From positions 1 to 64,000 of the forward strand of contig JALHMH010000009.1 in NCBI GenBank assembly GCA_022844165.1: a stretch of 64,000 bases of DNA. The letters run 5' to 3'. Made by a program: the position numbers and the translations under genes. The notes under the pieces are model-generated. The model saw only the letters and a list, made by a program, of their open reading frames with translations, did no database searches and was not told the DNA's origin. This DNA comes from Lysobacterales bacterium. Lineage in GTDB: Bacteria > Pseudomonadota > Gammaproteobacteria > Xanthomonadales > SZUA-5. The number at the start of each line of letters is the position of its first letter. The stretch's first letter is position 1. Positions 12,466-61,853 of this stretch are shown here, piece by piece.

Positions 12466-15400
12466 TCAATCGACTTCGTCGAACCCAGAGCGGAACATGG
12501 CGTCCGCGCGCACATCGACGCTCACCTCGGTGTCGGCCGGCAAGAATCGCGTGTCGCCTGCATATTGCAGCGCAAAGGTCCGCAGGCCGGAGGTTTGCAC
12601 GATCAGATCGCAACTGAGCGCGGGCAAGGTCAGAACACAAACTTCCACGCCTGGCATGCCGGTCACAGTGATGCTGCCGGTGGGCACGCCGGAGCCCGGC
12701 GCGATCACGTTGACGCTCACAGGAAAGCGCATCGGTGCGAACTGTCGCGGCAGATTGCCATCGTTGGCTGTCGGTGTGTCGGGCGATAGCATGGTGCCGG
12801 CACGGCCCACCTGGTGGGCCGTGCTCGCGGTACTCTGCAGGTGTGTGCTGCTACCGGTAAAATCGGCGCGCAGCGTGATTTCGCCAGCGTTGGTGGGAAT
12901 CAGGTTGCAGTTCCCAATAGCGCCTCCGATCTGGCACGTCGCGCCAGCGCTATCGCTGATGACAATAGGACCGGCGGGAGTACCAACGCTGCTCGAAAGC
13001 TGCGCGGCGACGTTGACCGCCTGGCCGAAGACACTCGGATCGGGCGTATCGCTCAGGATTTGCAAGGTGCTCGCCACGGCGTTGACTTGATGCGGTTCGG
13101 TATCGCTGCTGGCCAGGAAGTTGGCGGTTTGAACGTAGCTCGCAGTTAGCGTCAACGCGCCGCCGGCACCCGGCGTGAGCACGCAGCTGCCATTGCCGCC
13201 CGCGCCGACGGCACTGCTGCACTGGCCACCCACACCGTCGCTGACGACGACGTTGCCGCTGCCCTCCGTGGCTTGCGCGCTCAGGACCTGAAAGGCAACA
13301 GTGATCGCGTCACCAAAGGTCGATGGATCCGGCGTATCGCTCTGAATGCTGAGCGTCGTCGGTACACGATCAACGACGTGAGCTGTGGTTGCTGCGCTGC
13401 TGGTGAATCCGGGCGCGCCCGGATAACTGGCGGCCAGCGTGATCGCGCCGGCGCCGCCGGGCGTCAACTGGCAACTGCCGCTGCCGGCGCTCAGCGTCGC
13501 ATGACAGTTGCCACCATTGGAGGCGGCGATGCTCACCGTGCCAACTGGCGTGGCAATGAAGCCCGAAACGCTGACATTGACGGTTATGGCCTGCCCGAAC
13601 ACCGAAGGGTTCGGTGTTGCACTGATGTTAGTGGTGGTCGCATCCGCGATCTGCACGTGCTGCGCAAACTCGCTGGTGTCCTCGAAGGCACCCTGAATGC
13701 GCCCTGCGGTCGCCGTCAAATGGCTGAGAAAAGTTGCCGGCAGCAACGGCGTTGAACCGCTGAAATTGCCGCTGGCGTCGGTCGAAACGGTTTGACTCAC
13801 CAACGCGGGATCGTCGCATTCGCCATGGCCGCTGGGATCAGGCGTCGCCACAAAACAGTAGCGCAAGCGGTACTGCTGGTTTGGCAGCGAATTCAGGCTG
13901 ACGTCCGCGGTCACACCACTGGCCGAGCGGCGCACGTTGCTGAGCACCGGAAAGTTCTGACCATTGTTGCCGCCGATGTCGCCGTCGCCGGGATCGTTGG
14001 GTGTGACGCCGTCGCCGAATACACTGGAGCCCAGGTTCAAATCGACCGCCAGTTCATCATTGCTGCGTATTCGGTTATCGATCAACGTCGTCAACGTGCC
14101 ACCGGTGATGGTCACACCATCGCGGCCATTGTGCGCAATCAGATTGCCGACAATCGTCGCGGTTGCAGAATCGACCGCAACGCCGTGGCGCGCGTTGCTC
14201 ACCGGCGTCGTGCCATCCGCGCCAACGCCGATGCGGTTGTTTTCGATGGCGACATTGCCGACGGCGATCACGCGGATACCGTTCACCAGACCGCCGATCA
14301 CATTGCTGCGGATCGTCGTGAATTGCCGCGCCACCTCAATGCCGATTGGAATCTGCGAGGCACCGTTGTCGACCGGGGTTACGAGGCGCGCCAAACCGCT
14401 GGCGGTCACGCCGATCAGATTACCTTCGACTCGTGCCGCTCCCGGATTGCCAAAATTGCGCACGGCGATGCAACTCATGGCATTGAACTGTTGCGGACAG
14501 GAAATGACGTTGCGCGCAGCCAGTGTCGCGCCGCCGATGCGACACGGGCCATCGCAGACGACTTGCGCGCCGTTTTGCGCTGTCGACGCGATGCTGCTGC
14601 CATCGACACTGACACCAATGAAGTTGCCTTCGAGCGCGCCGCCGGCAATCGAGATCAGACCGCTCGGACCGCGCAGAACCAGGCCGCGGACCAGCGTGTC
14701 GTCATTGCGCAACCCGATCTTGACGTTGAGCAAGTCGATCTTGAGCTGCGCATTGCTGCCGATGCTCGCCGTATTCGCCAGCGCGCCGGATTGCGTGTAA
14801 CCGTCGATCTCCAGTTTGCCGGTCAACACCGGCACCGACAACACGCCAAGCCCGATCGTATGCGGCCCGGCGCCTGGAATATTGAAAACCACACGATCCC
14901 GCGTGGCCCCATCCGGACGCGCCTCCGACTCCAACAACGCGCGGAACAGAGAACCAGGGCCGCTGCTATTGGTGTTGGTGACCACAAAATCGCCGCTGGT
15001 TTGTGTGTACACGGCGCGCGCTTCGCCGTACTCGCTGGTTTCGATACCGATGCCGCTGCTGTCGAGCCGCGTCGCGGTGCCGACCACCGCGCCCAAATCA
15101 CCACTGCCGTCGAATTCGACAGGCACCGGTCCGAAACTCGCCACACCGCCGGCATCCGTCGTCACTGTGATCGTCCCGGTCGAAATGCGTTCGCCGTTGG
15201 CCAGCGCAAACGCGCTCGATGCAGCTCGCGTGATCTCTGGCGAGGCAAAAAAACTCCAGCGCAAAACTGGTGCCTGGCGTCGAGCGCAACTGGCCGGCCA
15301 TCAGCACCTGATCGTCGTCGATACGGCGCGACTCGGAGATCGTTGGGTAGTTCTGCAGATTGTTGGCGCCGGTGTCGGCGTCGGTTTCGTCGTTAAAGGT

Positions 15401-16402
15401 GAAACCATTGTTGTTCAGATCGAAGGGCACCGCCGTGCCGCCGACGATGCGATTACTGCGCAACACAATGCCGGTCAGGGTCGAGGCCACTGGCAACGGC
15501 GAGCTGGCGAAGTTGGCGAAGGTGTTAAAGGAAAAGGACTGATTGCTGAATGTGGAAAGCCGTTCCGTGGTGCAACCGGGATTGCCGATGCCATCGGTGG
15601 TCGTGCCAAAGCGGTTTTGTTCGAACACTCTGCCGAAACTTTGCAGTGCGATGCCCCCGGTGCAGCTGATGGTGTTGGCGATGACGCTTTGCGTGCTCAA
15701 ATTGCCGATGGAGACGATCGCGAAGTCCACGGCGGCCGGTGTGACGCCATCCGGCAGCAGGCCGAAGATGTTGTTGCGTACTGTGTTGATACCAGTCGCC
15801 GCAGACTCGAAACGCAGCGCGGTACTTGCAGCAACAAAAACGTTGCGATCCGCATTGGCAGCGCCGCCGACGGTGTGGGTCGAGGACGAGTTGACCGTCA
15901 AGCTGCGCGAGTGAGCGACGGTCGTGGTGCCGTCAGGCTCCACGCCGAACCAGTTGCCCGCCACGGTGCCGCCGTCTGTCACATTCAGGCCAAAATTGCC
16001 TGGCGGGCCGATGATCGATAGCCCACGGACCGACCCACCCGTGACCGTGAGAATGGTCTGCGTCAGCGTGCGACCATCGACGATGATCTTGAGCACGGCA
16101 TTGCTGGCATGCGCATGGGTGTTGGCCTGCGCGCCGGGCTGCGTATAGCCATCAATCGTAACAAGGTTGATCGTACCTAGAGCGCTGCCGAGCGTGATCC
16201 GATGGGGTCCGACGCCCGGGATGTTAAAGGCAACGGTGTCGGCACCGGCGGCGTTGTTGGCGGCCGTCAGCGCCTGCCGTAAGGTACAGACGGCCGCACA
16301 GGATGCCCCGGCGGTATCCGCCGTCGAGGTCACCGTGAACGTAGCGGCATGGCCGAACGACGTTACAAGCAGCAACAACCACCCAGCAACACTGCGCGCC
16401 AT
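12466..16402 (-). pseudogene. Large secreted surface protein (CSLREA-type N-terminus, two beta-helix modules, ~4 Ig-like repeats, C-terminal FxxGFD motif), split by a +1 frameshift at T7 (15247-15253)
   Basis: ORFs 15098-16435 and 12466-15264 join into ~1311 aa if one T is removed (LEFF|ASPE). Signal peptide, CTLRQAL motif, duplicated FNIPGxGPHxI and GxNNxQNxP, repeated SDTPDPSxFG. Confidence 0.85.
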
Positions 16403-16461
16403 GACGCCATCTCCCCGCCGTTTGCGATGTTGCAAACGCTAGTGCCAGCCGGGTGGCGCGA

Positions 16462-16499
16462 TTTGACGCCAGGCTGCAAAGGTTTGACGTCAGGTTGCA
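16462..16499. promoter_or_regulatory. 17-bp direct repeat with 21-bp period upstream of the adhesin gene
   Basis: TTTGACGCCAGGCTGCA (16462-16478) and TTTGACGTCAGGTTGCA (16483-16499), 15/17 identical. Confidence 0.55.
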
Positions 16500-16576
16500 G
16501 TCCAGCACCGGGCAAGCCTAACAGGACGCCGCAACCGTGTAGCCTAATCGCTGCCGCCCTAGGACAACTCGCATCC

Positions 16577-18673: not shown

Positions 18674-18695
18674 CGTGGTGACCACTGCGCAAACT

Positions 18696-18900
18696 TCAGT
18701 CCCACCAGAAATACCAGACCTTGGCTTTCAGCAGCCTCGCAGCCAGATCGCCAACGGAGCCGGCACCTTGATGGACAGCATCTGGGCAGTACGCATAGGT
18801 CTCGAGGCCAATGCGTGGGCATCGTCCCAGGTTTGTGTCGACCGAATGACTTCGCACTCAAGGGTATCGCCGCTCATGAGACACTGTTCGAGCCGTAACG
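18696..18900 (-). pseudogene. Frameshifted DUF4253-like gene remnant
   Basis: Pieces in different frames: QRYG, SGDTLECEVIRS...AHALA, and ETYAYCPDAVHQGAGSVGDLAARLLKAKVWYFWWD*, which is the characteristic CPD...QG...WxFWWD terminus. Confidence 0.65.
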
Positions 18901-18972
18901 CTGACTGAGTTCTACGCTATCCGCAAGCAGGCCGAGTTCCGTACGATCCCCCTCCACGATTGCGCACCTGTT

Positions 18973-19362: not shown

Positions 19363-19634
19363 GTCGTCTCTCCTGTGCTGATTCACACGCTTAAGCTATG
19401 GCGAAGTTTGGCGCGAGGCGAGAACCTTCAATACGTGTTAATGCTCTGGCCATTTCGGGCCGCCAAGGATGCCGAACCCGCTGCCTGATGATCGCGGTGC
19501 CATGCGTCGCAGTTACGGTGGAACGGCGTCGCACGCGTCCCGACCCATGGATCGGAACGCTCGCGCTGTGTTCTGTCACGTCCGATGGCCAAGCGAGCGG
19601 CGCGAAACCAGGCCGTCTCGCGGCGCCATCGGCC

Positions 19635-21928: not shown

Positions 21929-21948
21929 TTGTGCAGCACGCAGCATAG

Positions 21949-23379
<1,431 letters not shown>

Positions 23380-34575: not shown

Positions 34576-35259
34576 TTGTTCGTCGCCGCGCCGCGCAATC
34601 CGCTGGCCAGACATGGCGTCGAGCTGGATGGCGCCATTCTCACCCGCGCGCTGACACATCGCAGCGCGGGCCGCGATAACTATGAGCGGCTCGAGTTCCT
34701 GGGCGATGCGCTCGTCAACACCATCATCAGCATTGGTTTGTATCAGCGTTATGCGCGCGCCGCCGAAGGCGACCTGACGCGATTGCGCGCCGCGCTGATC
34801 CGCGAATCCAGTTTGGCGGAAATCGCCCGATCGCTGAATTTGTCCGATTACCTGTTGCTCGGTTCCGGCGAACTCAAGAGTGGCGGCTTTCGTCGCGACT
34901 CAATACTTGCCGACACCCTGGAAGCCTTGGTGGCAGCTGTATTCCTGCATCATGGTTGGGACGAGTGCCGCCGACTGGTCGATGCGTTGTTCGAGAGTGC
35001 TTTTGCCAAGGTCGACCCGGAAGCCGCAAAAGACTCCAAGACGCGACTACAAGAACTGCTGCAAGGTCGCGGGCTCGGCCTGCCCGAGTACCGATTGATC
35101 GACAGTCACGGCAAAGACCACGACAAGACCTTCGTGATGGCCTGCGAAGTGGTGGCGCTGGGTACTGCTGCGCAAGCCACTGGGCGCAGCCGTAAACACG
35201 CCGAACAGGCGGCTGCCGAAGCCGTGCTGACACTACTTGCCAACGGCGCCGGCGCATGA
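34576..35259 (+). CDS. rnc: Ribonuclease III
   Basis: ALTHRS, NYERLEFLGDA and dsRBD KTRLQE motifs. Confidence 0.96.
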   Translation: MFVAAPRNPLARHGVELDGAILTRALTHRSAGRDNYERLEFLGDALVNTIISIGLYQRYARAAEGDLTRLRAALIRESSLAEIARSLNLSDYLLLGSGELKSGGFRRDSILADTLEALVAAVFLHHGWDECRRLVDALFESAFAKVDPEAAKDSKTRLQELLQGRGLGLPEYRLIDSHGKDHDKTFVMACEVVALGTAAQATGRSRKHAEQAAAEAVLTLLANGAGA

Positions 35260-36140
35260 GCTTTGTGGCGGGTCACGCGGCGCTGATCGGCCGTCCCAAT
35301 GTCGGAAAATCAAGCCTGCTGAACGTCTTTGTGGGCGCTCATTTGGGCGCGGTTTCGCCCAAGCCGCACACAACGCGGCAGCTGGTCCTGGGCGTGCGCA
35401 GTTTCCCAGACTCGCAGATTGCGTTCGTCGATACGCCGGGGCTGCAACAACGACGACCGAATGCGGTACACAAGGCGATGGACCGTGCTTTTGACCGCGG
35501 CGTCGGCAGCGTCGACCTGGTAGTGCTGGTCGTCGAAGCCGGGACCTTCAATGCCGGCGATCGCGCGGCGCTGGAGCGCGCGAAGCAAACCGAGCGGCCG
35601 ATTGCGGTGGTGGTCAACAAAGTCGACCTGATCAAAAACAAAGCCGAGTTGCTGCCGTATATCGACAAGCTTAGCCGCGAACACGACTTCGCCGCGATTT
35701 TGTTGGTGAGCGCACGCAAAGAAAGCGGTACCGAGGAGGCAGTCAGGCGCCTTGCAGCCCTGTTGCCGAGGCAGGAAGCACTGTATCCGGCCGATACGCT
35801 GACTGACCGTAGCGAGCGCTTTCTGGCAGCCGAACTGGTGCGAGAGCAACTGATGCGGCAGCTCGGCGACGAAGTGCCATATGCATGCGCGGTCGAGATC
35901 GAAGCCTTCACGATTGAAGGCGCGCTGCGTCGTATTCACGCCATCATCTGGGTCGAACGCGACGGCCAGAAGGCGATCGTCATCGGCGAGGGCGGTCAGC
36001 AATTGAAGTTCATCGGCAGCAAAGCGCGTGAAGCCATGGAACTGTTGTTCGACGGCCGCGTACATCTGGAGTTGTGGGTCAAAGTACGCGCCGATTGGAG
36101 CGACAGCGAGCGAGCGCTGAAACAATTCGGTTTTGAGTGA
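35256..36140 (+). CDS. era: GTPase Era
   Basis: GRPNVGKS, DTPG and NKVD motifs plus KH domain. Confidence 0.96.
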   Translation: MSFVAGHAALIGRPNVGKSSLLNVFVGAHLGAVSPKPHTTRQLVLGVRSFPDSQIAFVDTPGLQQRRPNAVHKAMDRAFDRGVGSVDLVVLVVEAGTFNAGDRAALERAKQTERPIAVVVNKVDLIKNKAELLPYIDKLSREHDFAAILLVSARKESGTEEAVRRLAALLPRQEALYPADTLTDRSERFLAAELVREQLMRQLGDEVPYACAVEIEAFTIEGALRRIHAIIWVERDGQKAIVIGEGGQQLKFIGSKAREAMELLFDGRVHLELWVKVRADWSDSERALKQFGFE

Positions 36141-47230: not shown

Positions 47231-47806
47231 ATGATCACTGACCTTCTGCAGCGTTGGCGTAAGGGCGACCGTTCGGCCGAAGCCGAACTGATGAATGTGG
47301 CCTACCCGACGCTGCTCGATCTTGCGCGGGCGCAAGTGCGCCGAAACGGCGGCGTGCTGACGCTGCAGTCAACGGAGCTTGCACATGAGGCTTACGAGCG
47401 CCTCAGCGAGCAGCATGGCGTCGACTGGCAAAACCGCGAGCACTTTTTTGCAATCGCGGCGACGGTGGTTCGGCGCGTGGTCGTCGATTACTTGCGCATG
47501 CGCGGGCGGGATAAACGCGGCGGGGGTTTGCCGTTTGTGGCCCTGGACGAGATCACCGAACGCGAGCAGCCGACCATCGATGAATCGATCGACTGGATCG
47601 AAGTCGATCAGGCACTCAGCGAGTTCGAAGCCATCGATCCGGTGGCGGCACGCGTCGTCGAACTGAAGTTTTTTTCGGGCCTGACCACTGAAGAAATCGC
47701 CGCTGCCATGGATAGTTCCGTCGCAACCGTCGGGCGCCAGTGGCGGTTTGCGCGCGCCTGGCTCGGTCATCGACTCGGCGCCGATCTCGAACCCCAGAGT
47801 CCATGA
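47231..47806 (+). CDS. ECF sigma factor, TIGR02999/ECF43 type
   Basis: ITDLLQRW...TLQSTELAHEAY...WQNREHFFAIAA...RVVELKFFSGL...ARAWL. Overlaps the kinase start (ATGA). Confidence 0.92.
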   Translation: MITDLLQRWRKGDRSAEAELMNVAYPTLLDLARAQVRRNGGVLTLQSTELAHEAYERLSEQHGVDWQNREHFFAIAATVVRRVVVDYLRMRGRDKRGGGLPFVALDEITEREQPTIDESIDWIEVDQALSEFEAIDPVAARVVELKFFSGLTTEEIAAAMDSSVATVGRQWRFARAWLGHRLGADLEPQSP

Positions 47807-50220
47807 GTCTTCAGGCACTGTTCGAGGCAGCGCTGGCGCTCCACCCAAATCAACGCGACGCTTACCTGGCGAAGGCGACGCCCGACCCTGCGGTGCGCGC
47901 ACAAATACTCGCAATGCTCCGCGTCGATGCGCGTCTCGATGGCATGGAAAGCGCCACGCCCGGCATCGATGTGGGCCAGTGGGCGGCGATGTTGAGCGCC
48001 ACCAAAGTCCGGCCAGGCGACATGATTGGCCCATTTCGCGTTTGTGAGCCGCTCGGGCAAGGGGGGATGGGCGTCGTGTTTCGCGCCGAGCGCGACGAGC
48101 CCAAGCAACAGGTGGCAATCAAGATCGTGCGCGGCGGCGAGCTCGATGCACTTTATCGGCAGCGCTTCGATCTGGAACGCCAGGCGCTGGCCGCGCTCGA
48201 TCACCCCTACATCGCACGGCTGATCGATGCCAACGCCCTTGCCGACGGCACACCCTACTACGTGATGGAGTATGTCTCCGGTCTTGCGCTGGACCGCTAC
48301 TGCACGGAACGGCGACTCAGCGTGCGCGACCGCGTGCGGCTCATGCTGCGCATTTGCCAGGCGGTAGCGCATGCACACCGTCATCTGATCGTGCACCGCG
48401 ATCTGAAACCCAGCAATATCCTGATTGACGCCGATGGTTTGCCCAAACTCCTGGATTTCGGAATCGCCAAACGGTTGGGCGGCGATGCGCTGGCTGACAC
48501 TGGCACGGCGCAACGGTTTTTCTCGCCGCGATATGCCGCACCCGAGCAATTTCGTGGTCACTCTGCGAGTGTCGGCACGGATATCTATGCACTCGGTGTA
48601 CTACTTTTCGAAACGCTGACCGGGCGTCTGCCCTTCGATTTCGACGGGCTAAGCCTGGGTGAGATCGATCGCCTGATCGCTACGGTCGCTGCACCGGCGC
48701 CCAGCGCCCGGGCGCATGGAAATCATATCCAGCGGGAGTTGCGTGGCGACCTGGACGGGATCGTACAAAAATGCTTGCGAAAATCGCCCGACGAGCGCTA
48801 CGAATCAGTCCCGCAATTGACCGAGGATCTGAACGCGTGGCTCGATGGATTGCCCGTGCGAGCCAGAGGCGGCCACCAATGGTATCGGCTGCGCAAGTTC
48901 ATTGCCCGCCATCGTCTCGCCGCCAGTATCGGTGCTTTTTCGTTGTTGGCCTTAGGCGCTGCTGCTGCACTGCTTTGGCAGCAGAATTTAGCGTTGCGGC
49001 AGCAACGCGATTTAGCGCAGCGCGCACTGACGATGATGCAGGACGCATTCACGGCCGCAGACCCGATGCGCGCCGCGGGCGCAGAGGTCACCGCGCGACA
49101 GATACTGGAGTCCGCGCGGCGTAAGCTGGAACCGCTGGCGGCCGAACAACCCGCATTGTTCGTGACCTTGGCGCGCACGATCGCGAGCGTCGATGTCTCG
49201 TTGGGTCGTGGCGAACAGGCCTCTGAGTTATTGGGCCAGGCACGGATGGCGGCTGCAGCCGCCGAAATCGAAGACGCCGATTCCGAACTGGCGCTGATGC
49301 ATGCGCGTGCGCTCACCATCGCAAAGCGCCTGCCGGAGGCGCAAGAGCTGCTCGACGACATCGCCACGCGTGGCCACCAGGGCGCAGCTTGGCTGTCAGC
49401 GCAGGGGCGTTTGTGGTCGCGCCGCGGCGATCATTCGCAGGCGGTTTCGATTCTGGAAAACGCAATGCAGGCCCTGTCGGCGAGGCCACCCGGCGATGAG
49501 CTGGCAACGACTACGCGCTACGCGCTGGCCGAAGCGCGCGGCGTAGCCGGCGACAACACAGGAGAACTTCGGGAAATCGACGCCATCCTGGCCTGGCAAA
49601 AGTCCAGTCTGGCAGCCGACCATCCACAGTTGATTGTGACGCGAATGCGCCGCCTGGTTGCACTCTACCTGGCCGCTCAAATGGAGACCGCAGTCGCCGA
49701 AGCACAGCTCATTCTCGAGGACGTTCGAACGATCTATGGGGAGAATGCTGCTGAAGCGGCTTCGGTTTACAACACGCTGGGCCAGGCCCTCGGTAGCCTC
49801 AAGCGTGTCGATGAGGCGCTCGATGCCTATCGTCAGGCGCACGCGATCAGCAGTCGCGCGGCAGGTCGCGACGCAACGAATACCCTGCGCATGCACTTTA
49901 ATCTGGCGCATACCCTGGCTGCGGCTGGAAGAGCCGGCGAGGCCGAGCTTGAGTATCGCGAATTACTGCAACTGGCCGAAAAGCGACGCGGCGGCGCCAA
50001 CGCAACGGTAGCGTATTACCGAATGCAGGCAGCGCTGCTTCAGTTATCGCTGAAGCGGCCTGAGGTGGCCCTGACGATACTGACGGCGGAAGACTGGCAG
50101 CTCGGCTGGGCGGAACTCGACGCCGGCAACCGCAAGCGCTACAGGCTCGCACTGCGCGACGCTTGCGGTTCGTCTCCAGACGAAATCTGCACGATCGCTT
50201 TGGCATTTGTAGCATCTTGA
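47803..50220 (+). CDS. Hanks-type Ser/Thr kinase with TM helix and TPR region (kinase 2)
   Basis: GQGGMGVVF, VAIK, HRDLKPSNI, DFG and YAAPE motifs. Confidence 0.93.
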   Translation: MSLQALFEAALALHPNQRDAYLAKATPDPAVRAQILAMLRVDARLDGMESATPGIDVGQWAAMLSATKVRPGDMIGPFRVCEPLGQGGMGVVFRAERDEPKQQVAIKIVRGGELDALYRQRFDLERQALAALDHPYIARLIDANALADGTPYYVMEYVSGLALDRYCTERRLSVRDRVRLMLRICQAVAHAHRHLIVHRDLKPSNILIDADGLPKLLDFGIAKRLGGDALADTGTAQRFFSPRYAAPEQFRGHSASVGTDIYALGVLLFETLTGRLPFDFDGLSLGEIDRLIATVAAPAPSARAHGNHIQRELRGDLDGIVQKCLRKSPDERYESVPQLTEDLNAWLDGLPVRARGGHQWYRLRKFIARHRLAASIGAFSLLALGAAAALLWQQNLALRQQRDLAQRALTMMQDAFTAADPMRAAGAEVTARQILESARRKLEPLAAEQPALFVTLARTIASVDVSLGRGEQASELLGQARMAAAAAEIEDADSELALMHARALTIAKRLPEAQELLDDIATRGHQGAAWLSAQGRLWSRRGDHSQAVSILENAMQALSARPPGDELATTTRYALAEARGVAGDNTGELREIDAILAWQKSSLAADHPQLIVTRMRRLVALYLAAQMETAVAEAQLILEDVRTIYGENAAEAASVYNTLGQALGSLKRVDEALDAYRQAHAISSRAAGRDATNTLRMHFNLAHTLAAAGRAGEAELEYRELLQLAEKRRGGANATVAYYRMQAALLQLSLKRPEVALTILTAEDWQLGWAELDAGNRKRYRLALRDACGSSPDEICTIALAFVAS

Positions 50221-50834: not shown

Positions 50835-51350
50835 AAAAAGCGCCTTGTCCACGTTCGGCGAGTTCCCTTCCTGACCCGCTCCGTGGGCCAGGAAGGGACA
50901 AGAACCTGGGGCTGCTTGCGCCAGAGTCAGAAAGAAATCGGCAATGAAATCGACCTGCTAGCGATTTAGCCGCGCACGAGCGACTCACGGCTGAAGTTGG
51001 TCGGGCGCCGCAACCCACCTCGCTGCTTTCACGAGTGCGACTTCCCCAGGCCATGGCCCGCTCCGCTGTGCTTCGCCGTTAACTGCCGCAATCGCACTCG
51101 ATCCACATCGCAATCCGACCCTTTCCTCGCGACCGCAAGAACTGTCCGGATTGGGACGGTTCGCGACCGACAAACCAGTGCAAAATGCGCGCTCGAATGA
51201 GAACGTACTCGTCCGCCTCGTTGCCAACGATTTTGGGGGCTTGCTTGGCGCAGTTTCGTACCACGCCAGAAGGTGGAGACGGTTCTCTCCGCAAGCTGCT
51301 GATCGTGCAGCAGGCATGAGAGAACTGTGCGCACTGAGAAGCCGCACTCA

Positions 51351-54260
51351 ATGAGTATTCCAGCCACTTTGCAAGAGCAACTTGCGCGCCTGATGGGATT
51401 GCCGCCGGTCGAGCGCGAGCAGGCGCTGGCGGCGATTGAAGATGCAGAAATGCGCGAAGAGCTCGCGGCGTTGATTGCGGCGCAAATCGCGTCCGAGCCC
51501 ACGACCAATGCCGGCGACCAGGGGCAAGCAGAACCGGGCCTTTCGGTGACCAGCGTCAACCCCGACCTACCGAAAAACCCAATTCCACGTTTAGACGTCC
51601 ACTCTACCGGCTTGCAGGGCAAGCGCATTGGGCCGTACACGCTGGATGCGTGGATCGGCGATGGCGGTTCGGCTTCGGTGTATCGCGCGCATCGACTGGT
51701 TGAGGGCGTACGCCAGACGGTGGCAATCAAGGTCCTGCATCGTGGCATGCAGGCGCCCGAAGCGCGCCAGCAATTCGACCGCGAGCGGCGCGTGCTCTCG
51801 GTGCTGGAGCATGCCTCGATCGCGCGCTGGATCGATGGCGGCGTGACACGCGATGGCGCGGCCTATCTGGTCTTGGAATTTGTCGATGGCCAGAGTATCA
51901 CCAGTTTCGCCAGGGCGAAAAAGCTGTCGCTGCGATCGCGCATCGGGCTGATGATCGAGGTCGCCAACGCAGTCGATGCCGCGCACCGGGCACTGATTGT
52001 GCATCGCGACTTGAAACCTGGAAACTTGCTCGTCAACGGCTCTGGGCAAATCAAACTGCTCGACTTTGGCATCGCCAAACTGCTGGAAGGCGACGGCGAG
52101 AATCAAACGCAAGTGCACATGTTCACACCAGCCTACGCCGCACCCGAACAGCGTAGCGGCGGGACCATCACGACCGCAACCGATGTTTACGCGTTGGGCG
52201 TGATTCTCGGCGAGTTGCTGATCGGCAAACGCTTCAATAGCGAGATCACCACCACGCCCTCGCTGCAAATCGATGACGAAGCTACCGAAGAAGGCACGTT
52301 GCCTGCGCCGCCCGCGCGGCTGCGACAACTGATCAAGGGCGATATCGACAACATTCTGCTCAAAGCGCTGGCCAACGATCCGAACAAGCGCTATAGCTCC
52401 GCAGCCGCGTTCGCCGACGACTTGCGCTGTGCGCTGGAGGGTCGCCCGGTCGCCGCGCATCCACCTTCGCGCAGGTATCGCGCCAGCAAGTTCATCACCC
52501 GAAACAAAATCAGCGTCGGATTAGTGACCGCGCTCAGTATCGGGATCATCGCCGCAAGCATCGTCTCGGTGCTGTTTGCGATCAGTGCCGAGCGCGCACG
52601 AGAACGAGCCGAACTGAGTTTCAGTGCGTCGGTGCACGCGGTCAACAACCTGACGCAGGATCTGGCGAAGAACCTGCGCGAGGCGCGCGGCGTTCGCGCC
52701 GAAACTGTCGCTGGCGTGCTGCAAAAGGCGCAGAAGCTGGTCAGCGACATCGAGCGCACCGATCCAGGCAACATCGCGCTGGAACACGCGCGCATTGGAA
52801 TGTTGATCGGCTTTTCCGGCACCTATCGCAGCATCGCGCGATCAAACGAGGCCGATGCTGCACTCGACGACGCCTGGTCGCGTCTGGAGGCGCTGCGAGA
52901 TCGCGGCATCGAAACGCCATTGCCGTTGAAGATCGACGCGCTGCTCGCGCGTTCGGAGGCGCACTACTACACGATGGACTGGCAGTCTTCCGCGGATGCT
53001 GCGCGTCAGGCGTCGGCGCTGAGCGCGGGTGACTCCACGCGCGCATGGCGCGCGCGCAAACAACTGGCGATCGCGTTGTTTTTCGCCAACGAGCTTAAGG
53101 CCGTGCACGCACTCCACACCTCGGAACTAGCAATTGAGCGCACGCTGGCATCGGACGACCTTGATGCCGACGGCCTGGCGCACGCGCTCGACTGCTACAC
53201 GACGATCGCATCGGCGCTCGCCTTGCTCGGTGAGCACCAAAACGCAGAGGCGTTGCGCGTTCATGCGCGTGCGGCAACACAGCAAGCGTTGCAACGCTTT
53301 CCAAATTCTCAAGACCTGCTGCTCACCGATTTGCGCTTGACCAATCTCGAAGCCAACTATTTGTTGCGGCTGGACCATATCGACGAAGGTCTGGCGTTGG
53401 CGCAAACTGGGCTGGAACTGGCGAATGAGGCGATCGTGGCGAATCCGAATTCGATGGCATTCCGTTTCGTTGCCAGATCGTTCTACAACGTTCGTGCAAG
53501 AGTGTTTCGCCAGCGCAATCAGGTTGAATCGGAACTCGCTGATCTGCGCGCAATCCGTGATTCGCACAGGGAGCTTTCCGATCGCGATTCTGGCAATAGG
53601 TTCTTGCGCGCCGAGTTGTCGTTTGCTGAGCGGCGCGTGGCGAATGCGCTGTTGTTGCGGAGCAAGGCGCAACCGGATGCCATAGTCGAGTCCGAGCGGT
53701 CAACGTTGGCAGCGCTTCAGATCGACCGCGAATTGTTGCAACCGGCCCCATCGCGTCCGTTTGCGCGGCGCTATCTTGCCGCCTCACTGGAACAACTAGG
53801 CGATCTTCGTAAGACGCAAATGCGTTTCGACGACGCCGATGCTGCTTACCAGGAGAGTTTGCAATTGCGACTCGCGCTGGCGCGAGATTTTCCGTCCGAG
53901 CCGGGTTGGCTTCGCTTGGTGGCAATCAGCTACGAGGCAATCAAGGACCTCGCAGCTAGGCGCGATGACCTTGATGGTGCGATTCGTGCACAACGCGAAG
54001 CGGTGAGCCTTTGGGAGGCGCTTCGGGCGCAATCGAAGGAGCCCAGCGATTCGCTCTCTTGGTTCGATAGCCAGTTGTTGCTGGTTGAGGCATTGCTGCT
54101 CCAGAGGAACAACCCAGCGCTAACTGCCGAGGCAGTCCAAATACTCGGACGGTTGCGCGATTACGCAAAGGAGCATGCTCAATCTCTGCAAGCAAGACCC
54201 GATCTCGTCAAAGAACTCGCTCGCCTGTATGAGCGCGCATCACCCGGAGGAACACGCTGA
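51351..54260 (+). CDS. Hanks-type Ser/Thr kinase with TM helix and TPR region (kinase 3)
   Basis: GDGGSASVY, VAIK, HRDLKPGNL, DFG and YAAPE motifs. Long helical repeat C-terminus. Confidence 0.92.
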   Translation: MSIPATLQEQLARLMGLPPVEREQALAAIEDAEMREELAALIAAQIASEPTTNAGDQGQAEPGLSVTSVNPDLPKNPIPRLDVHSTGLQGKRIGPYTLDAWIGDGGSASVYRAHRLVEGVRQTVAIKVLHRGMQAPEARQQFDRERRVLSVLEHASIARWIDGGVTRDGAAYLVLEFVDGQSITSFARAKKLSLRSRIGLMIEVANAVDAAHRALIVHRDLKPGNLLVNGSGQIKLLDFGIAKLLEGDGENQTQVHMFTPAYAAPEQRSGGTITTATDVYALGVILGELLIGKRFNSEITTTPSLQIDDEATEEGTLPAPPARLRQLIKGDIDNILLKALANDPNKRYSSAAAFADDLRCALEGRPVAAHPPSRRYRASKFITRNKISVGLVTALSIGIIAASIVSVLFAISAERARERAELSFSASVHAVNNLTQDLAKNLREARGVRAETVAGVLQKAQKLVSDIERTDPGNIALEHARIGMLIGFSGTYRSIARSNEADAALDDAWSRLEALRDRGIETPLPLKIDALLARSEAHYYTMDWQSSADAARQASALSAGDSTRAWRARKQLAIALFFANELKAVHALHTSELAIERTLASDDLDADGLAHALDCYTTIASALALLGEHQNAEALRVHARAATQQALQRFPNSQDLLLTDLRLTNLEANYLLRLDHIDEGLALAQTGLELANEAIVANPNSMAFRFVARSFYNVRARVFRQRNQVESELADLRAIRDSHRELSDRDSGNRFLRAELSFAERRVANALLLRSKAQPDAIVESERSTLAALQIDRELLQPAPSRPFARRYLAASLEQLGDLRKTQMRFDDADAAYQESLQLRLALARDFPSEPGWLRLVAISYEAIKDLAARRDDLDGAIRAQREAVSLWEALRAQSKEPSDSLSWFDSQLLLVEALLLQRNNPALTAEAVQILGRLRDYAKEHAQSLQARPDLVKELARLYERASPGGTR

Positions 54261-55777
54261 TGTCCATTGACCGATACGCATCGTCGCTGCGTTACGCGCT
54301 GATATTGCCAGCGCTGCTGGCAAGCGCCGCCTATGCGCAAACCATCGGCCTCAACCAAACCGTGGTTGCCGAGTTCAACAACGCCGCAGAATTCCAAACG
54401 CTCTCCAATGCCGGCTGGATCTTTCGCGCGGGAAATGGCACCGGTACGCAGAGCTGCGCCACACCGGGTAACATCGACGCTTGCGGTTTCGGTTTTTTTG
54501 CTGATGGCGCGCAAGGCACGGCGCGCGGTTTGGCGGCAGGCAACACGCAGGGCCGTTGGATCATCACGCCACCTATCATTTTCGGGAGCAGCGGCAACGT
54601 CAGTATCGTTCTGCGCAAAGTGAACTCAGGGACGGGAGGCCTTGATCTTCGCGAGAGCGGTGGCGCGTCGGATACGCAAGAGATGTCCGATAACGGTATT
54701 GAGCCTGGAACAGACAAAGGCAGCGGCGCCTGTCCGGCGGGAAACAGCTTCTGCGCGCTGCGCAACTTGCGTAGCTCCGGCGACGCCACCTCCGGCGGCG
54801 AGCCGAGTTGTGCGAACTTGTTCACACCGGCCAATCCTGGTGTGGGCTTGAGCTATTGCACAGTGCAAATCAACGCGTCGGAGTTACAAAATTTCGGCAC
54901 CGGCGTGCATCGCCTCGCGATCAAGCTGCGTTCCTCGGGTTCCACCGTGGGCAGCAATGTGGACATGTTGCTGGATCGCATCGAGATCAACACTGGCAAC
55001 AACGATCAGGTACCCGCGCAGGCGTTCATCAGCCACGGCTTCACTGGCAGCAACCCTGTGCTCGGCCTGTATCGCCATCCGATTGCGGGCCACACCGCAG
55101 CCAACTTGTCCTTGGTAACGGCGCTAACGAGTAACGATTTTGCTGCGCTCGACTTCAGTCCCAACGGCAACACGCTGTACGGGATCGTCGGCTCTCCGCC
55201 GACGCTGGTGCGCGTAGATACCAACACAGGCTCGCGAACGCCGATTGGCGCAGTGACAGGGCTGCTATCCAGCAACGAGTTCATCCGTGGCTTGATGGTC
55301 GATCCACGCAGCGGCGAGAGCTATTTGATGACGCGCAGTTTCGCCGATGCGCAGTCGCGCCTGTATTTGTTCGATCTGACCAATGCCGAGGCGAACCTCC
55401 AGGCCGGCGTCAACAACGGCGGTGATTTCCGCGCCTCGGCAAGCTCCATCGACTGCGCAGGACGCCTCTACAGCGTCGACACCACCAGCCCGCCGGGCGG
55501 GCGCCTGTATCGCGTCAATCGCATCGATGGCTCCGTTACGCTGGTGGGCAACACCGGCTACACCTCCAGCCTGTTCCATGGACCTATCGACTTCGACAAT
55601 GCGAACGATCGGTTGATGGGTTGGGTGCAAGCCCAAAATGGCGCCTACGTCGGCTACGGCAGCTACAGCTTGAGCACCGGATTCTTCAGCGTGATCTCGA
55701 CCACGCCGCAACTGTCGATGGGCGCCGGCGCGATCAACAGCCGCTGCTGGGAGCGATTTGCAGATGGTTTTGAGTAG
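54260..55777 (+). CDS. Secreted protein, beta-sandwich N-domain plus beta-propeller-like C-domain, ending FADGFE
   Basis: Signal peptide ending AYA, repeated LYxVD/LDF-type blades, TGATG coupling to kinase 3. Confidence 0.82.
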   Translation: MSIDRYASSLRYALILPALLASAAYAQTIGLNQTVVAEFNNAAEFQTLSNAGWIFRAGNGTGTQSCATPGNIDACGFGFFADGAQGTARGLAAGNTQGRWIITPPIIFGSSGNVSIVLRKVNSGTGGLDLRESGGASDTQEMSDNGIEPGTDKGSGACPAGNSFCALRNLRSSGDATSGGEPSCANLFTPANPGVGLSYCTVQINASELQNFGTGVHRLAIKLRSSGSTVGSNVDMLLDRIEINTGNNDQVPAQAFISHGFTGSNPVLGLYRHPIAGHTAANLSLVTALTSNDFAALDFSPNGNTLYGIVGSPPTLVRVDTNTGSRTPIGAVTGLLSSNEFIRGLMVDPRSGESYLMTRSFADAQSRLYLFDLTNAEANLQAGVNNGGDFRASASSIDCAGRLYSVDTTSPPGGRLYRVNRIDGSVTLVGNTGYTSSLFHGPIDFDNANDRLMGWVQAQNGAYVGYGSYSLSTGFFSVISTTPQLSMGAGAINSRCWERFADGFE

Positions 55778-55843
55778 GCGCCCGGCGCGCGAGCACTGAA
55801 CCCGAGAATGACTCACGTTCTGTTGCGTGCCTGTTGAGTTACG

Positions 55844-56890
55844 ATGAGTCTGGAGATACTTCAGGTGCCTGTCAGGAGACCGCTCATGCGATGGGTTCTC
55901 GCGCTTGCCTTATTGCTAGCCAACAAAGCGCTGGCTGAGATCTACGTGACCGATGGCGTGTCCAACGGCAACCCGCCCAACCGTATCAGTGTGTGGCCCG
56001 ATACTGCCACCGGCAATCCGGCCCCCGTGCGGCGTATCGTCGGCTCGCGCACACAGATCGGCAACGGCAGCAATGGTCTGCCCGACATCATCACGATCAG
56101 CAGCCGCCAGGAAATCTTGATCACCAACAACTCGCAATTGCGCATCCAGACGTTTCAGCTCGGCGCCAACGGCGACGTATTGCCCTTGCGTGAATTGTTG
56201 CTCACTGGCCAGCCCAAAGGGTTGGCTTACATCCCGATCACTGATGAAATCGTCACCGCACCGTCGAATTTTTCTGCCATCCACTTCTATCCGCGCGCAG
56301 CCACCGGAAGCGCGCCGACCACGCGCGTGATCAGCGGCAACAACACCGGAATCGGCTCCATTCCGACCGACATCGTTTACTTGTTCGGCGTCGATCAGAT
56401 TGCGGTGTCGGACTATGTGCCGGGAGACCCAAATTTCGCCAAGCGAATTCAGGTTTTTGCACGCACCGCCTCCGGCAATACCGCGCCAGTGCGGGTGATC
56501 CAAGGTCCTGCAACACAACTTGGCGCTTGCAACGGCCGTGCCGCTGGCATCACCACCGATCACACCGGCACCGAGATCATCATCGGCTGCTTCAATCAAA
56601 TCCTGACCTTCGGCCCGGCAGCCAGTGGCGATGCTGCGCCACTGCGGCAGATTACAGGTGTGGCGACAACGCTTGTCGCCATTTCCGACGTCACCTTTCT
56701 ATTCGGTAACCAGGGCCAACCCTCAACGCTGGTCGTGACGCAGTTCAATGCCACCAACTCTGTCGCGCGCTTCGACGCCGCCGCGAGCGGCGATGTTGCG
56801 CCGCTCACGAGCCTGAATAGCCTCGCGCTGTTTCAAGCGCGCTCGGTCGCTGCCGAGGTGATCACATTGTTGCAGGATGGCTTCGAATAG
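55844..56890 (+). CDS. Secreted repeat (beta-propeller-like) protein ending LQDGFE
   Basis: Signal peptide (likely start ATG 55886). About six repeats of A(T/S)G(N/D)xAPxRxIxG. Confidence 0.82.
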   Translation: MSLEILQVPVRRPLMRWVLALALLLANKALAEIYVTDGVSNGNPPNRISVWPDTATGNPAPVRRIVGSRTQIGNGSNGLPDIITISSRQEILITNNSQLRIQTFQLGANGDVLPLRELLLTGQPKGLAYIPITDEIVTAPSNFSAIHFYPRAATGSAPTTRVISGNNTGIGSIPTDIVYLFGVDQIAVSDYVPGDPNFAKRIQVFARTASGNTAPVRVIQGPATQLGACNGRAAGITTDHTGTEIIIGCFNQILTFGPAASGDAAPLRQITGVATTLVAISDVTFLFGNQGQPSTLVVTQFNATNSVARFDAAASGDVAPLTSLNSLALFQARSVAAEVITLLQDGFE

Positions 56891-56963
56891 CCGCTAGTGG
56901 CAGCCGACGACTGTGACGCGATCAGATCGCGCTGCAGTCGATTCGACCTGATCAGCATCGCCG

Positions 56964-57872
56964 CTATTCGGCCGGGCTGGTTCTGGGTTTCAAGGTTCTC
57001 GCAAACAGGTCCAATGTCGCCTGCCATGCTTGAGCGGCAGCTTCGGCGTGGAATCGGGGCGTGGTGTCGTTGTGGAACCCGTGCTGGGTTCCGGGCAGTT
57101 GCAGTTTGCTGTATCGAACGCCGTTGGCCTGCATGGCTGCCTCGAAGCTGGGCCAGTTGGCATTGATGCGTTCGTCGTTCGCTGCGAGCACGACCAGCAG
57201 TTCCGCCTTGATGCTCGGAACGTCCTCGATTGCGGCACCCATGCCATAAAACGGTGCGGCTGCGCGCAACGATGGCAATTGTGTTGCCAACCAGTTGACC
57301 AGACCGCCGCCCCAGCAGAACCCCACCGCGCCGAGCTGCCCGTTGCCACCTTCGACGCCGAGCAAATACTGCGCAGCCGCTAAAAAGTCGGCGCGCGACT
57401 TGGCCTGGTCGAGCGTTTGAAACTTCGCGCGCGCGTCGTCCTCATTGCCCGGGTAACCACCCAGCGGAAAGAGCGCGTCGGGCGCCAATGTAATGTACCC
57501 CTCGAGCGCAAAGCGTCGCGCGACATCCTCGATGTGCGGATTCAAACCGCGATTCTCGTGCGCCACCAAAACCAGCGGTGCTGCAGTGGTGAGCTCGGCC
57601 GGGCGGACCAAATACGCTCGCCCGCGATCATGACCTGGCGACGCGAATTCGATGAACTCGGCTATCAGTCGCGCGTCGTCCGGCGCAACTTTCTGTGCTT
57701 GCGCGAAGCGCGGCGACAGCAAGGTCAGCATCGTCGCCGCCGTCATCGCGCCGGTCGCAAATCGCCCCGCATCGCGGAGGAATGCACGCCGATCGATGAT
57801 ACCGTGCACGTACTGATCGAATAGCCGCCACACGCCGGGATGGAAATCGATGGTCGGGTCGGGTTCTGTCAT
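56964..57872 (-). CDS. Dienelactone hydrolase family protein (YghX-like)
   Basis: FDQYVHGIIDRRAFL, HENRGLNPHIEDVARR, GFCWGG and HGFHNDTT motifs. Confidence 0.9.
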   Translation of the reverse strand: MTEPDPTIDFHPGVWRLFDQYVHGIIDRRAFLRDAGRFATGAMTAATMLTLLSPRFAQAQKVAPDDARLIAEFIEFASPGHDRGRAYLVRPAELTTAAPLVLVAHENRGLNPHIEDVARRFALEGYITLAPDALFPLGGYPGNEDDARAKFQTLDQAKSRADFLAAAQYLLGVEGGNGQLGAVGFCWGGGLVNWLATQLPSLRAAAPFYGMGAAIEDVPSIKAELLVVLAANDERINANWPSFEAAMQANGVRYSKLQLPGTQHGFHNDTTPRFHAEAAAQAWQATLDLFARTLKPRTSPAE

Positions 57873-57959
57873 GGCGTCAACCTCTTTTGATACCGTTCAC
57901 CCAATGATCGCAGCGCAAGCGTGTTGGCGACGTTTAGCTCCGCAGCGGCGAGCAGCGGC

Positions 57960-60900: not shown

Positions 60901-61148
60901 CATGCCACCTGCACCGGACAACTGCAGTGGCTTTCGATCCGCCATCGCCCGTTTCTCAATCGCGCGCGAACATGAACTCGATAGGGATGTCTGCGCCCGC
61001 CGCGAACTTCTCCCAACACCGCACGTTCGTCCTGGCCTTCGGACCATTCCAACCACAGAACACGACGCTCGCGCACGTACGCCAGACCACGCCGCAAGTC
61101 GGTCTCGGTGAAGTGCGCTGCAAGCGAATCGGTGGAGATAGACCACAT
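57960..61148 (-). CDS. SWIM zinc finger / SNF2-family helicase
   Basis: CSCP...CKH SWIM motif, LADDMGLGKT, DESQ, LTGTPLENHL and QATDRAHRIGQ motifs. The start is ATG 61148 or an upstream alternative at 61187. Confidence 0.92.
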   Translation of the reverse strand: MWSISTDSLAAHFTETDLRRGLAYVRERRVLWLEWSEGQDERAVLGEVRGGRRHPYRVHVRARLRNGRWRIESHCSCPVQVACKHAAALLQSAHVEIAAEPQTARAIIAPVAGRYGFLGTALGPPQALAVRPGRWTAHGSSWRFEEVPLSILRDLPESLAMPAARQLAVRLAPIRGSHLESQVWWILPEDARAVLQTIAGQGAFAWREPALLVVPGPGRNPEWTWEIDSRGAQRLHPRTGLATDLVRIGTVWHYVDRLARQIGALDWPLTPRLASELLALPPLLPAAAAVWPPQFSDALPANFPAPPVLPTLASEPRTPLPILSLHQSAGTIEQRGRRSAQLIAFARLSFAYGAQRVGETDPAPAMTSYDGERVSVEPRDRTQERGFALRLKQLGLTSNRHALIDHPGLTGADWIINPDGDPQSLNEFCYVMLPRLRSEGWRIEYGPRFPLKLIDTDYRFVADVEELPGQLRLSLGIEVDGERIELLPSLRAGLREGRFADLPTADTVIALSLPGEKRLPVASGKLRAILRTLEELGDAGSSDQRTVVLPRARAAALIELETELADGERLFSSAPAVRLLAERLARYSGLPATPVPKELRATLRSYQVEGLAWMRFLGQGGLSGILADDMGLGKTVQVLAHLLGEQEEGRLDRPALVVCPKSVLPNWSAEVARFAPSLSVVVYAGAERGKRLKSIAGADIVLTTYPVLSRDGAAFASQPWHIVVLDESQMVKNPATLAARAARKLDARQRLCLTGTPLENHLGELWAQFDFLLPGLLGNKTDFTRLYRKPIEKLRDVDARERLRRRIRPFLLRRTKDQVIADLPPKTEIVRSLTLEGRQRELYDSLRAVYLAELKDLIAKGLWERSRIRVLEGLTRLRQVCCDPRLLDHEVRAPSAKLEVLVDMLSELTQAGRRILVFSQFTSMLSLIEAELVAHRIRYTKLTGQTDDRATPVQRFQRGEVAVFLISLKAGGFGLNLTAADTVIHYDPWWNPAAEAQATDRAHRIGQDKPVFVYRLIASDTVEQHIQELQARKREWSAAIFDDAGQSLAAGLTADDWLDLVG

Positions 61149-61373
61149 GGGGCGCAATATCGGCAGTTGGCGCGCAACGGGACGCAACAGGACAGCCTAA
61201 CAGTCCTAAGGTGCTGGTGTCAGTGAATCCGCCATGGGTTCTTGCACCAACTGAGAGCCTGTTGAATGTCAAACTTGAGGAATGCTCCGCAAACCGTTGG
61301 TTTGGCGAATGGAAAAGCGGTGTTATGCTTGAGGGGACGTCGCCCTCTGTGCGATTCGCGTGGATCGAAGACC

Positions 61374-61853
61374 ATGAAAAAAATCGCCGCCTTGCTGTTA
61401 TTGATGGTGTCGATCGTCGGCAGCGCGCAAGACCAACCGCCGGAAGGCGCGGTCTGGCAGTACTCGATTTACCCAACAGGAATCGGGACCGCTGGCTATT
61501 TTTGCGTGATCAACCGCCTGCCCGCAAACCTGGCGACGAATCAGGCCGGTTTTGCGGCGAGCGAAGGTGCGTTCTTCACCGAGTCGTCGCCTGGCCTGCC
61601 GCTGTTGCCACCCAGTGGCCTGGCGTTTCACATCCTGGACTGCCTTGTGCCGTCCTGGACCGATTTCAGATTCTGTTTTCAGGCGCCAACACCCTGGTAC
61701 ACAGGCTTTTATCCGAACCAGCGCATCGCCCAAATTAACGTTTTTATGTGCGCCAACCCACCGCCGCAAGGCTTCATGTGGGACTACTACGTGACCATGC
61801 GGCGCGAGGCCTATTTTCCGCCGCCGCTGATGTCGAACGGCTTCGAGCCGTGA
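61374..61853 (+). CDS. Secreted hypothetical protein ending LMSNGFEP
   Basis: Signal peptide MKKIAALLLLMVSIVGSA, four Cys, abuts holC. Confidence 0.78.
   Translation: MKKIAALLLLMVSIVGSAQDQPPEGAVWQYSIYPTGIGTAGYFCVINRLPANLATNQAGFAASEGAFFTESSPGLPLLPPSGLAFHILDCLVPSWTDFRFCFQAPTPWYTGFYPNQRIAQINVFMCANPPPQGFMWDYYVTMRREAYFPPPLMSNGFEP

Follow-up and report, generated by a model that had tools for sequence, protein, structure and literature searches.

A nine-residue GFE tail ends exported proteins of unrelated families in a Lysobacterales genome and is a candidate post-Sec address tag

We analyzed a stretch of 64,000 nucleotides from a Lysobacterales bacterium (the window; positions 1 to 64000 of contig C9), in which four proteins end in a short peptide built around Gly-Phe-Glu, here called the GFE tail. 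The assembly of this genome (G000) comprises 4.68 Mb in 59 contigs. Genomes are coded G, contigs C, families f, and genera g, and the genome studied here belongs to family f1. A preliminary description of the window had drawn attention to the four C-termini, and translation confirmed all of them as they had been given. The gene at 54260-55777 (+) encodes an exported protein of 505 aa, assigned to DUF6923/DUF4394 from its translation and Pfam, with the tail ...WERFADGFE (encoded at 55748-55774). It is followed at 55886-56890 (+) by the gene of an exported NHL/YncE-like beta-propeller, recognized through its homologues, with the tail ...ITLLQDGFE (56861-56887); the longest open reading frame (ORF) of this gene begins at 55844, and the likely start is the Met at 55886, which gives a protein of 334 aa. 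The third gene, at 61374-61853 (+), encodes a small exported protein of 159 aa, known from its translation, that matched no Pfam or NCBIfam family and ends in ...PLMSNGFEP (61824-61850).

The fourth protein, an adhesin on the reverse strand, had been described as one protein but is not a single open frame. Its 3' part (12466-15264, -) carries, by translation and Pfam, a beta-helix, four Big_3_5 repeats, and the variant tail ...DAMFRSGFDEVD, encoded at 12469-12504. The 5' part (15098-16435, -) carries the signal peptide (start at about 16402) and a CSLREA N-terminal domain (TIGR04214, 30.3 bits). A one-base offset near 15247 puts the two halves out of frame with each other, and the split across 12466-16435 reflects either a true frameshift, in a gene or pseudogene, or an indel in the assembly. 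Signal peptides had been reported for all four proteins; they are visible on three of them (MRWVLALALLLANKALA from 55886, MKKIAALLLLMVSIVGSAQ from 61374, and ...ALILPALLASAAYAQ in 54260-55777), whereas that of the adhesin sits on the separate 5' ORF.

A census of the whole genome indicated that the GFE ending is far more common than composition predicts. Genes were called by a home-made procedure, combining a codon-usage score with greedy removal of overlaps, which yielded 3556 genes covering 87% of the DNA. Exact GFE endings were found on 59 of the 3556 called proteins; composition would predict 0.55. GFE is thereby the most frequent C-terminal tripeptide of the genome (the runner-up is AAA, n = 22). 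Among these 59 endings, the residue before GFE was Asn in 36, Asp in 13, and Ser in 7 (56 of 59). The conserved segment spans nine residues, D-x-[LVI]-F-A-[NDS]-G-F-E, with Asp at the first position in 28 endings, Leu, Val, or Ile at the third in 51, Phe in 44 and Leu in 10 at the fourth, and Ala at the fifth in 34. The related motif [LIVMF][FLIVM]x[NDS]GFE occurs 80 times in the genome, and in 68 of these cases the C-terminus is at most 6 residues away. The GFD-plus-three-residues ending of the adhesin is an outlier: a relaxed census of the tails in this genome turned up no other SGFD ending.

That relaxed census also returned a few variants ending in DNFE, NSFE, and SGYE; an exported protein encoded at C18:28002-30140, for instance, ends in ...LMFADNFE, with Asn replacing Gly. 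LVTG also ranked as a frequent C-terminal tetrapeptide, which is accounted for by nine paralogous proteins (e.g., C3:489-1475 and C54:22372-23289) that end in ...GIGYAR[SR]LVTG and that we take to be copies of a transposase-like mobile gene. Within the window, a GTPase-like protein at 35256-36140 (+), presumably Era-like, has the G1 motif GRPNVGKSS, no signal peptide, and the end ...KQFGFE; the rest of the motif is absent, and the GFE end of this cytoplasmic protein is due to chance.

For further comparisons we used a slightly wider pattern, which defined a tagged set of 69 proteins. This set is conservative and misses the protein at 54260-55777, which has Arg at position -7. The chain ended exactly at Glu in 59 of the 69 tails. 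A signal peptide was called on 63 of the 69 tagged proteins and on 1183 of the 3487 untagged ones (34%), an odds ratio of 20 (P = 7.5e-23). The signal-peptide test is a home-made heuristic that over-calls, so that only the contrast between tagged and untagged proteins is meaningful. One of the six tagged proteins that failed the test is the frameshifted adhesin, whose other half has the signal peptide. The tagged proteins range from 103 to 2139 residues in length and, after removal of the tails, fell into 38 single-linkage BLAST clusters, 26 of which were singletons. The adhesin belonged to a 9-member cluster of paralogues, and the propeller (55844-56890) and the small protein (61266/61374-61853) were singletons; together with the DUF6923/DUF4394 assignment of 54260-55777, this bears out the claim that the four window proteins are mutually unrelated. 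Based on the excess of GFE endings, the excess of signal peptides, and the number of clusters, the tail is a C-terminal tag limited to Sec-exported proteins and independent of protein family.

The tail is also conserved. Among 49 listed homologues of the protein at 54260-55777 (52 to 89% identity), 47 keep F/Y-x-[NDS]-[GS]-F-E followed by 0 or 1 residue, and the two without the tail are truncated entries. The same list contains an 80%-identical orthologue labelled 'Pseudomarimonas sp.', a genus that NCBI places in Lysobacterales. Codons of the tail differ freely among copies and genomes, which places selection on the encoded peptide rather than on a repeated DNA element. In the AlphaFold2 model of 54260-55777, built with alignments, residues 498 to 505 have a predicted local distance difference test (pLDDT) score below 50, and G503, F504, and E505 are invariant. 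The model of the propeller is of good overall quality (mean pLDDT, 87.5; predicted template modeling score, 0.85); its final strand stops at residue 339, and the 8 C-terminal residues form a coil with a mean pLDDT of 54. In these models, then, the tail is predicted to lie outside the fold in two unrelated families. A terminal peptide that is invariant and yet appears disordered resembles a short linear motif recognized by a second molecule.

To describe the distribution of the tail, we counted it in two ways in genomes of the order. The first count used the back-translated pattern F-x-[ND]-G-F-E plus a stop codon in 299 genomes; this pattern misses Ser at position -4 and other variants. It gave 10 to 76 copies per genome in every genome of f1 (24/24), f4 (41/41), and f10 (40/40); the tail was also present in f9, f3, f5, and f6, and almost nothing was found in f2 (2/41) and most of f7, f8, and f12. 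A reversed-pattern DNA control gave approximately 0 matches per genome. The second count dropped the stop requirement in 149 genomes of the order and gave 20 to 118 motif copies per genome in f1, f3, f4, f5, f9, and f10 and 0 to 4 in most of f2 and f12. Without the stop requirement, several poor groups became rich, namely g29 (21 to 41 copies) and, within f12, g19, g31, g41, and g44 (up to 41). The contrast can be sharp between sister genera, with 21 to 41 copies in g29 against 1 to 6 in g14, and many f2 and f12 genomes lack the tail altogether although they lie within the order. The distribution is therefore all-or-none among genomes.

We read 40 loci in genomes G028 and G032 and found the motif at the C-terminus in 35, trailed by 0 to 10 unconserved residues; two further copies lay directly behind a signal peptide. 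These trailing residues explain why some groups are poor only under the stop requirement, and their variability means that the motif does not depend on a free Glu carboxylate. In a PDZ-type ligand, such as the Y-x-F ends of outer membrane proteins sensed by DegS, the carboxylate lies at a fixed distance; 59 of the 69 tails of the genome studied here share one distance, ending exactly at Glu, and in G028 and G032 the distance varies.

The tail differs from the sorting signals that have been described. PEP-CTERM/exosortase, LPXTG/sortase, and GlyGly-CTERM/rhombosortase signals consist of a motif followed by a transmembrane (TM) helix and a basic cluster, each with an identified processing enzyme. 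The GFE tail resembles them in being lineage-restricted, present in many copies per genome, and C-terminal on unrelated exported proteins. However, it has no TM helix, basic cluster, or identified enzyme, and since the proteins stop 0 to 6 residues past G-F-E, there is no room for a TM helix. It is thus not a tripartite signal of the sortase or exosortase type, in agreement with the preliminary description, which had also judged it far shorter than the C-terminal domain (CTD) of the type IX secretion system (T9SS). Like the type A T9SS CTD (TIGR04183/PF18962), whose signal is read after export, the tail is C-terminal on Sec-exported proteins and lacks a TM helix; that CTD is, however, a folded beta-sandwich of 70 to 100 residues, whereas the GFE tail is a nonapeptide that appears unstructured in models, and the T9SS CTD models did not match the four window proteins. 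The beta-signal of outer membrane proteins has a terminal Phe or Trp and closes a beta-barrel, while the GFE tail ends in Glu and is carried by soluble beta-helix, Ig-like, and propeller domains.

As the preliminary description had anticipated, we found no existing model of the tail. No Pfam or NCBIfam release 20 model matched the four proteins, their 30-residue tails, or five long-form tails (described below); Pfam was searched with the full-length proteins and the long-form tails, and the two tail sets were run to E = 10. The listings returned by full-text literature searches with motif strings and names contained no relevant description of the tail, although one preprint among them mentions exosortase H twice. 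Closest in concept are NF053834 (ultrashort_CTERM) and NF050076 (sort_motif_YLP), curated models of 10 to 11 positions for putative ultrashort C-terminal sorting motifs, but neither matches the GFE tails. In this genome the former had 4 and the latter 1 chance-level match, none of them at a GFE tail, and the two models also had matches in 10 and 11 of 14 control genomes, respectively.

The preliminary description had proposed a lineage-specific tag, which proved too narrow. Across 248 genomes sampled from the class but not from the order, the motif was at background except in G469, where 7 of 10 loci read end in the longer form ...F-x-D-G-F-E-S-G-D-x-S-x-W-S-x-x-V-P. Another genome with a high count, G533, was rejected as a tail bearer after its matches turned out to be housekeeping proteins. 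A scan for the long form with one genome per species returned at least 120 stretches, most of them in Thermoanaerobaculia, Holophagae, and other Acidobacteriota; the matches listed also include 'Ca. Multivoradales', a Polyangiaceae, a Deltaproteobacteria metagenome-assembled genome, and a Crocinitomicaceae. In an Acidobacteriota-centered sample of 131 genomes, three (G547, G556, and G670) had 42, 54, and 91 copies of the long form and the other 128 had 0 or 1. Four unpublished genomes are counted in these samples, G336 and G438 in the class sample and G575 and G600 in the Acidobacteriota-centered one, and none of our claims depends on any single one of them. By sequence, the GFE tail is the short form of an 18- to 19-residue tail, ...DGFESGDxSxWSxxVP, that is common in Acidobacteriota and other phyla.

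We examined 80 of the long-form loci, which held 86 closed instances. In 68 of these the protein stops 5 to 14 residues past GFE, and in at least 13 the same words open a jelly-roll domain of about 230 residues behind a signal peptide or linker. The full-domain instances come from Chloroflexota, Actinomycetota, Armatimonadota, and an archaeon. A hidden Markov model (HMM) built from 15 full domains found one protein in this genome, C42:8749-11808, whose C-terminal domain opens with a close variant of the motif. Since the same words begin a full domain in other phyla, the tail amounts by its sequence to the isolated first strand of a LamG-like jelly-roll domain. It has the same residues in the same order as the first strand of LamG/concanavalin-like jelly rolls (F-x-D-G-F-E-S-G-D-F-S-x-W); unlike the full domain of about 200 residues, the tails end after 7 to about 19 residues of strand, and no domain is formed.

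The tail also stands in for a recognized sorting signal. IPTL-CTERM (TIGR04174) is assigned to exosortase H (XrtH; TIGR04177, with the XrtH-associated membrane protein NF041730), an assignment that is itself computational. HMM searches found about four IPTL-CTERM proteins in this genome, all distinct from the four window proteins, and TIGR04174 matched neither the latter nor their 30-residue tails. Two of the IPTL-CTERM proteins share passenger domains with GFE-tailed paralogues, at 44% identity over 212 residues and at 30 to 35% over about 280. A regular expression run on 120 listed propeller homologues flagged 9 short and 3 long tails, and inspection by eye added the variants ...HGFE, ...QGFE, ...SSFE, and ...DGFQSGD..W..P; in two homologues, P0072 and P0164, an IPTL-type motif with a TM helix and an Arg-rich end occupies the position of the tail. 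The GFE tail thus replaces IPTL-CTERM on homologous proteins. A swap with a recognized sorting signal is the classical argument for regarding a C-terminal appendage as a sorting element, and here it argues that the tail is itself one. Like IPTL-CTERM, the tail is C-terminal on unrelated Sec-exported proteins, in the same genomes and at the same position on homologous passengers. The two differ in build, as IPTL-CTERM is tripartite (motif, TM helix, and Arg-rich end; about 27 residues) and the tail is a nonapeptide, and in number, with 1 to 16 IPTL-CTERM proteins per genome against 20 to 118 copies of the GFE motif.

Tail-rich genomes are almost a subset of the exosortase-H genomes. The XrtH-associated protein was found in 119 of the 149 genomes of the order, and IPTL-CTERM tracks its distribution. 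Among the 98 genomes with at least 10 motif copies, 96 have the XrtH-associated protein, and the two exceptions are 87% and 70% complete; conversely, 28 of the 30 genomes without it have at most 4 copies. Genome G134 is the only f2 genome with the XrtH-associated protein and also the only tail-rich f2 genome in the 149-genome sample, and the f12 genera with this protein are exactly those holding tail-rich genomes. In the class sample outside the order, it was found in 10 of 247 genomes, among them G469, the sole true tail bearer. We also looked for tails in genomes without the XrtH-associated protein, and none of the 20 motif matches in six such genomes was a genuine tail. XrtH itself (TIGR04177) was over its cutoff in three of five long-tail genomes of other phyla and in 14 of the 131 genomes of the Acidobacteriota-centered sample, comprising 2 of the 3 tail-rich ones and 12 of the 128 others.

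In this genome the XrtH-associated gene (NF041730, E = 1e-46) lies directly upstream of gspE and heads the operon of a complete Xps-type type II secretion system (T2SS) at C3:210-222 kb (gene and operon together, C3:209547-221733); PilQ is also present, and XrtH itself is encoded elsewhere (C54:7060-7581). The same order of the XrtH-associated gene, gspE to gspN, and gspD recurred in all 8 other genomes compared, which span six families and include tail-rich as well as tail-poor ones. This proximity hints that exosortase H works with type II secretion. In those 8 genomes (loci L053-L060) a gene of about 1290 aa precedes the XrtH-associated gene. This genome also has an orphan pair of GspC (PDZ) and the secretin GspD at C16:22858-25919, away from the main T2SS operon.

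The preliminary description had supposed that a receptor reads the tag. Its premise, a tag on exported proteins, holds, but no receptor or machinery was found, and three candidates, picked for their plausible mechanism, failed when their distribution was compared with that of the tail over the 149 genomes. A periplasmic protein with two PDZ domains (C26:19721-20830) was present in 0 of 17 genomes of the tail-rich f10 and occurs in tail-free genomes of f2. Peptidase_C13 was found in 17 of 17 genomes of the mostly tail-free f12, in 1 of 17 of f10, and in 0 of 8 of f3. Peptidase_C25, for which this genome has two genes, was found in 0 of 4 genomes of f5, 0 of 2 of f6, 1 of 6 of g29, and not in G134, while 5 of 9 genomes of the tail-poor g14 have it. 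Peptidase_C25 is unusual for a gammaproteobacterium but widespread in this order; the two gingipain/PorU-family domains here (C10:108826-109872 and C11:11038-12063) lie in very large proteins, with ORFs of 1672 and 1351 aa. Genes flanking the T2SS operon (genes of 195 aa and 558 aa after gspD and an O-antigen ABC transporter) were also dropped as candidates, being alike in tail-rich and tail-poor genomes. A jelly-roll partner lacking its first strand was not found in this genome at E <= 1e-3 with the HMM of the full domain.

The recurrent neighbors of the 69 tagged genes are regulators only, namely 14 paralogous Ser/Thr kinases of about 520 to 980 aa, 7 extracytoplasmic function (ECF) sigma factors, and two-component proteins. 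One of the 14 kinases lies in the window (51327-54260, +; 977 aa, by Pfam), and its stop codon TGA shares bases with the start codon ATG of the tagged gene at 54260-55777 (TGATG, with GGAGG upstream). A second Ser/Thr kinase, with TPR repeats by Pfam, is encoded at the same locus (47740-50220, +). Of the 37 kinase homologues in the genome, 12 have a tagged gene no more than 3 genes away, where about 4.3 would be expected (P of about 7e-4).

We consider it about an even chance (a probability near 0.5) that the GFE tail is a short linear address tag that acts after Sec export and is read in trans. A tagged protein would first cross the inner membrane by Sec, and the tail, hanging unstructured from the last folded domain, would act afterwards. 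Its most likely reader in trans would be something in the periplasm or outer membrane, which would then either move the protein through the outer membrane or keep it on the cell surface; it is such reading, such an effect on localization, and a link to exosortase H and the T2SS that we infer. The minimal tail, D-x-[LVI]-F-x-[NDS]-G-F-E, may be read by strand docking onto a partner, which is plausible because both the short and the long form match the first strand of a jelly roll. The preliminary description had suggested beta-strand addition, and this match lends that idea indirect support, though no receptor for such a strand was found. A more specific version is that the GFE tail and its long form are a second, TM-less class of cargo for an exosortase-H/T2SS surface route, read as a jelly-roll strand that docks on an envelope partner by strand complementation; we regard this version as improbable.

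It is important to note that several observations weigh against an address tag read in trans and tied to exosortase H. The neighborhood search found no recurrent envelope gene near the 69 tagged genes. The link to the XrtH-associated protein runs in one direction, since the motif count stays below 10 in 23 of the 119 positive genomes (g14, much of f8, G077, and G083), and it may reflect shared ancestry with a few joint losses. Related genomes are not independent, so that a Fisher P value overstates this association, and we treat it as a lead, not as a finding. In the five long-tail genomes of other phyla, NF041730 was over its cutoff in none; in two of the three that have XrtH, the latter adjoins a sub-threshold NF041730 homologue, and XrtH was not found in the remaining two (G549 and G551). 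Nor was it found in tail-rich G670 of the Acidobacteriota-centered sample. Lastly, 12 of the 80 motif copies in this genome are not C-terminal. Three of these lie directly behind a signal peptide, and the others are mostly in linkers between domains, such as that between a lytic polysaccharide monooxygenase-like domain and an FN3/GH18 part. Together with the full domains that open with the motif words in other phyla, these copies indicate that a purely structural origin is real.

Such an origin leads to an alternative in which no reader acts in trans, and the tail is a structural cap or folding element in cis, or the first-strand remnant of a lost LamG-like domain, with no role in sorting. The internal copies and the domain openings, both in other phyla (at least 13 of 86 instances) and in C42:8749-11808, are what this alternative would lead one to expect. 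A remnant, however, would not stay invariant in 47 of 49 orthologues or spread over 38 unrelated families, and its presence would not be expected to be all-or-none between sister genera such as g29 and g14; in addition, AlphaFold2 leaves the tail unpacked against the preceding domain in both families modeled. We therefore consider this alternative unlikely. Covalent anchoring or processing, in which the [N/D/S]-G bond is cleaved or transpeptidated with G-F-E and the residues after it as leaving group, seems to us rather doubtful. The acceptor would be lipid, lipopolysaccharide, or peptidoglycan, or the tail would simply be trimmed, and the enzyme would sit in the periplasm or membrane, with an exosortase-H module as one possibility. 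The near-invariant Asn, Asp, or Ser before Gly (56 of 59), the 0 to 10 variable residues after GFE in relatives, as for a leaving group, the interchange with a signal assigned to a transpeptidase-like enzyme, and the nesting of tail-rich genomes inside XrtH genomes all fit this chemistry. Yet defined exosortase substrates need the TM helix and basic tail that GFE tails lack, the Asn/Asp-directed or sortase-like candidates (legumain-type C13 and gingipain/PorU-type C25) are not codistributed with the tail, and no Cys, His, or Ser is invariant among 9 sequences of the XrtH-associated protein.

The kinases offer a further alternative, in which exposed GFE C-termini serve as signaling peptides sensed by periplasmic parts of the neighboring Ser/Thr kinases, which in turn would control ECF sigma factors, much as DegS senses the Y-x-F C-termini of outer membrane proteins. 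The excess of kinases near tagged genes and the overlapping kinase and tagged genes in the window are consistent with it, as is a kinase paralogue within 3 genes of 15 of the 69 tagged genes. The other 54 have no kinase nearby, the adjacency is equally explained by a kinase/sigma pair that regulates the secreted protein beside it, and in the kinase at 51327-54260 Pfam finds only the kinase domain and no periplasmic peptide-binding domain was identified. We regard sensing of this kind as very improbable overall, although it may hold for a minority of the tagged genes.

It has long been asked how Gram-negative bacteria select the folded periplasmic proteins that cross the outer membrane or remain on it, and we know of no linear signal for type II secretion substrates. 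About 2% of the proteome here carries a nine-residue tag, and other phyla have a homologous form of 18 to 19 residues. What is new is this long sister form with its match to a jelly-roll strand, the replacement of IPTL-CTERM by the tail, and the nesting of tail-rich genomes in exosortase-H genomes. If the tail and its long form are indeed exosortase-H/T2SS cargo signals, they would represent the first case of a short linear signal linked to the secretion or surface retention of type II-type exoproteins. Because the tag is portable, is easily deleted or transplanted, and has a sharp pattern of presence and absence, the question is experimentally tractable. The tag would also aid annotation by flagging exoproteins in many uncultured Lysobacterales and Acidobacteriota, and it offers a handle on the uncharacterized exosortase-H system.

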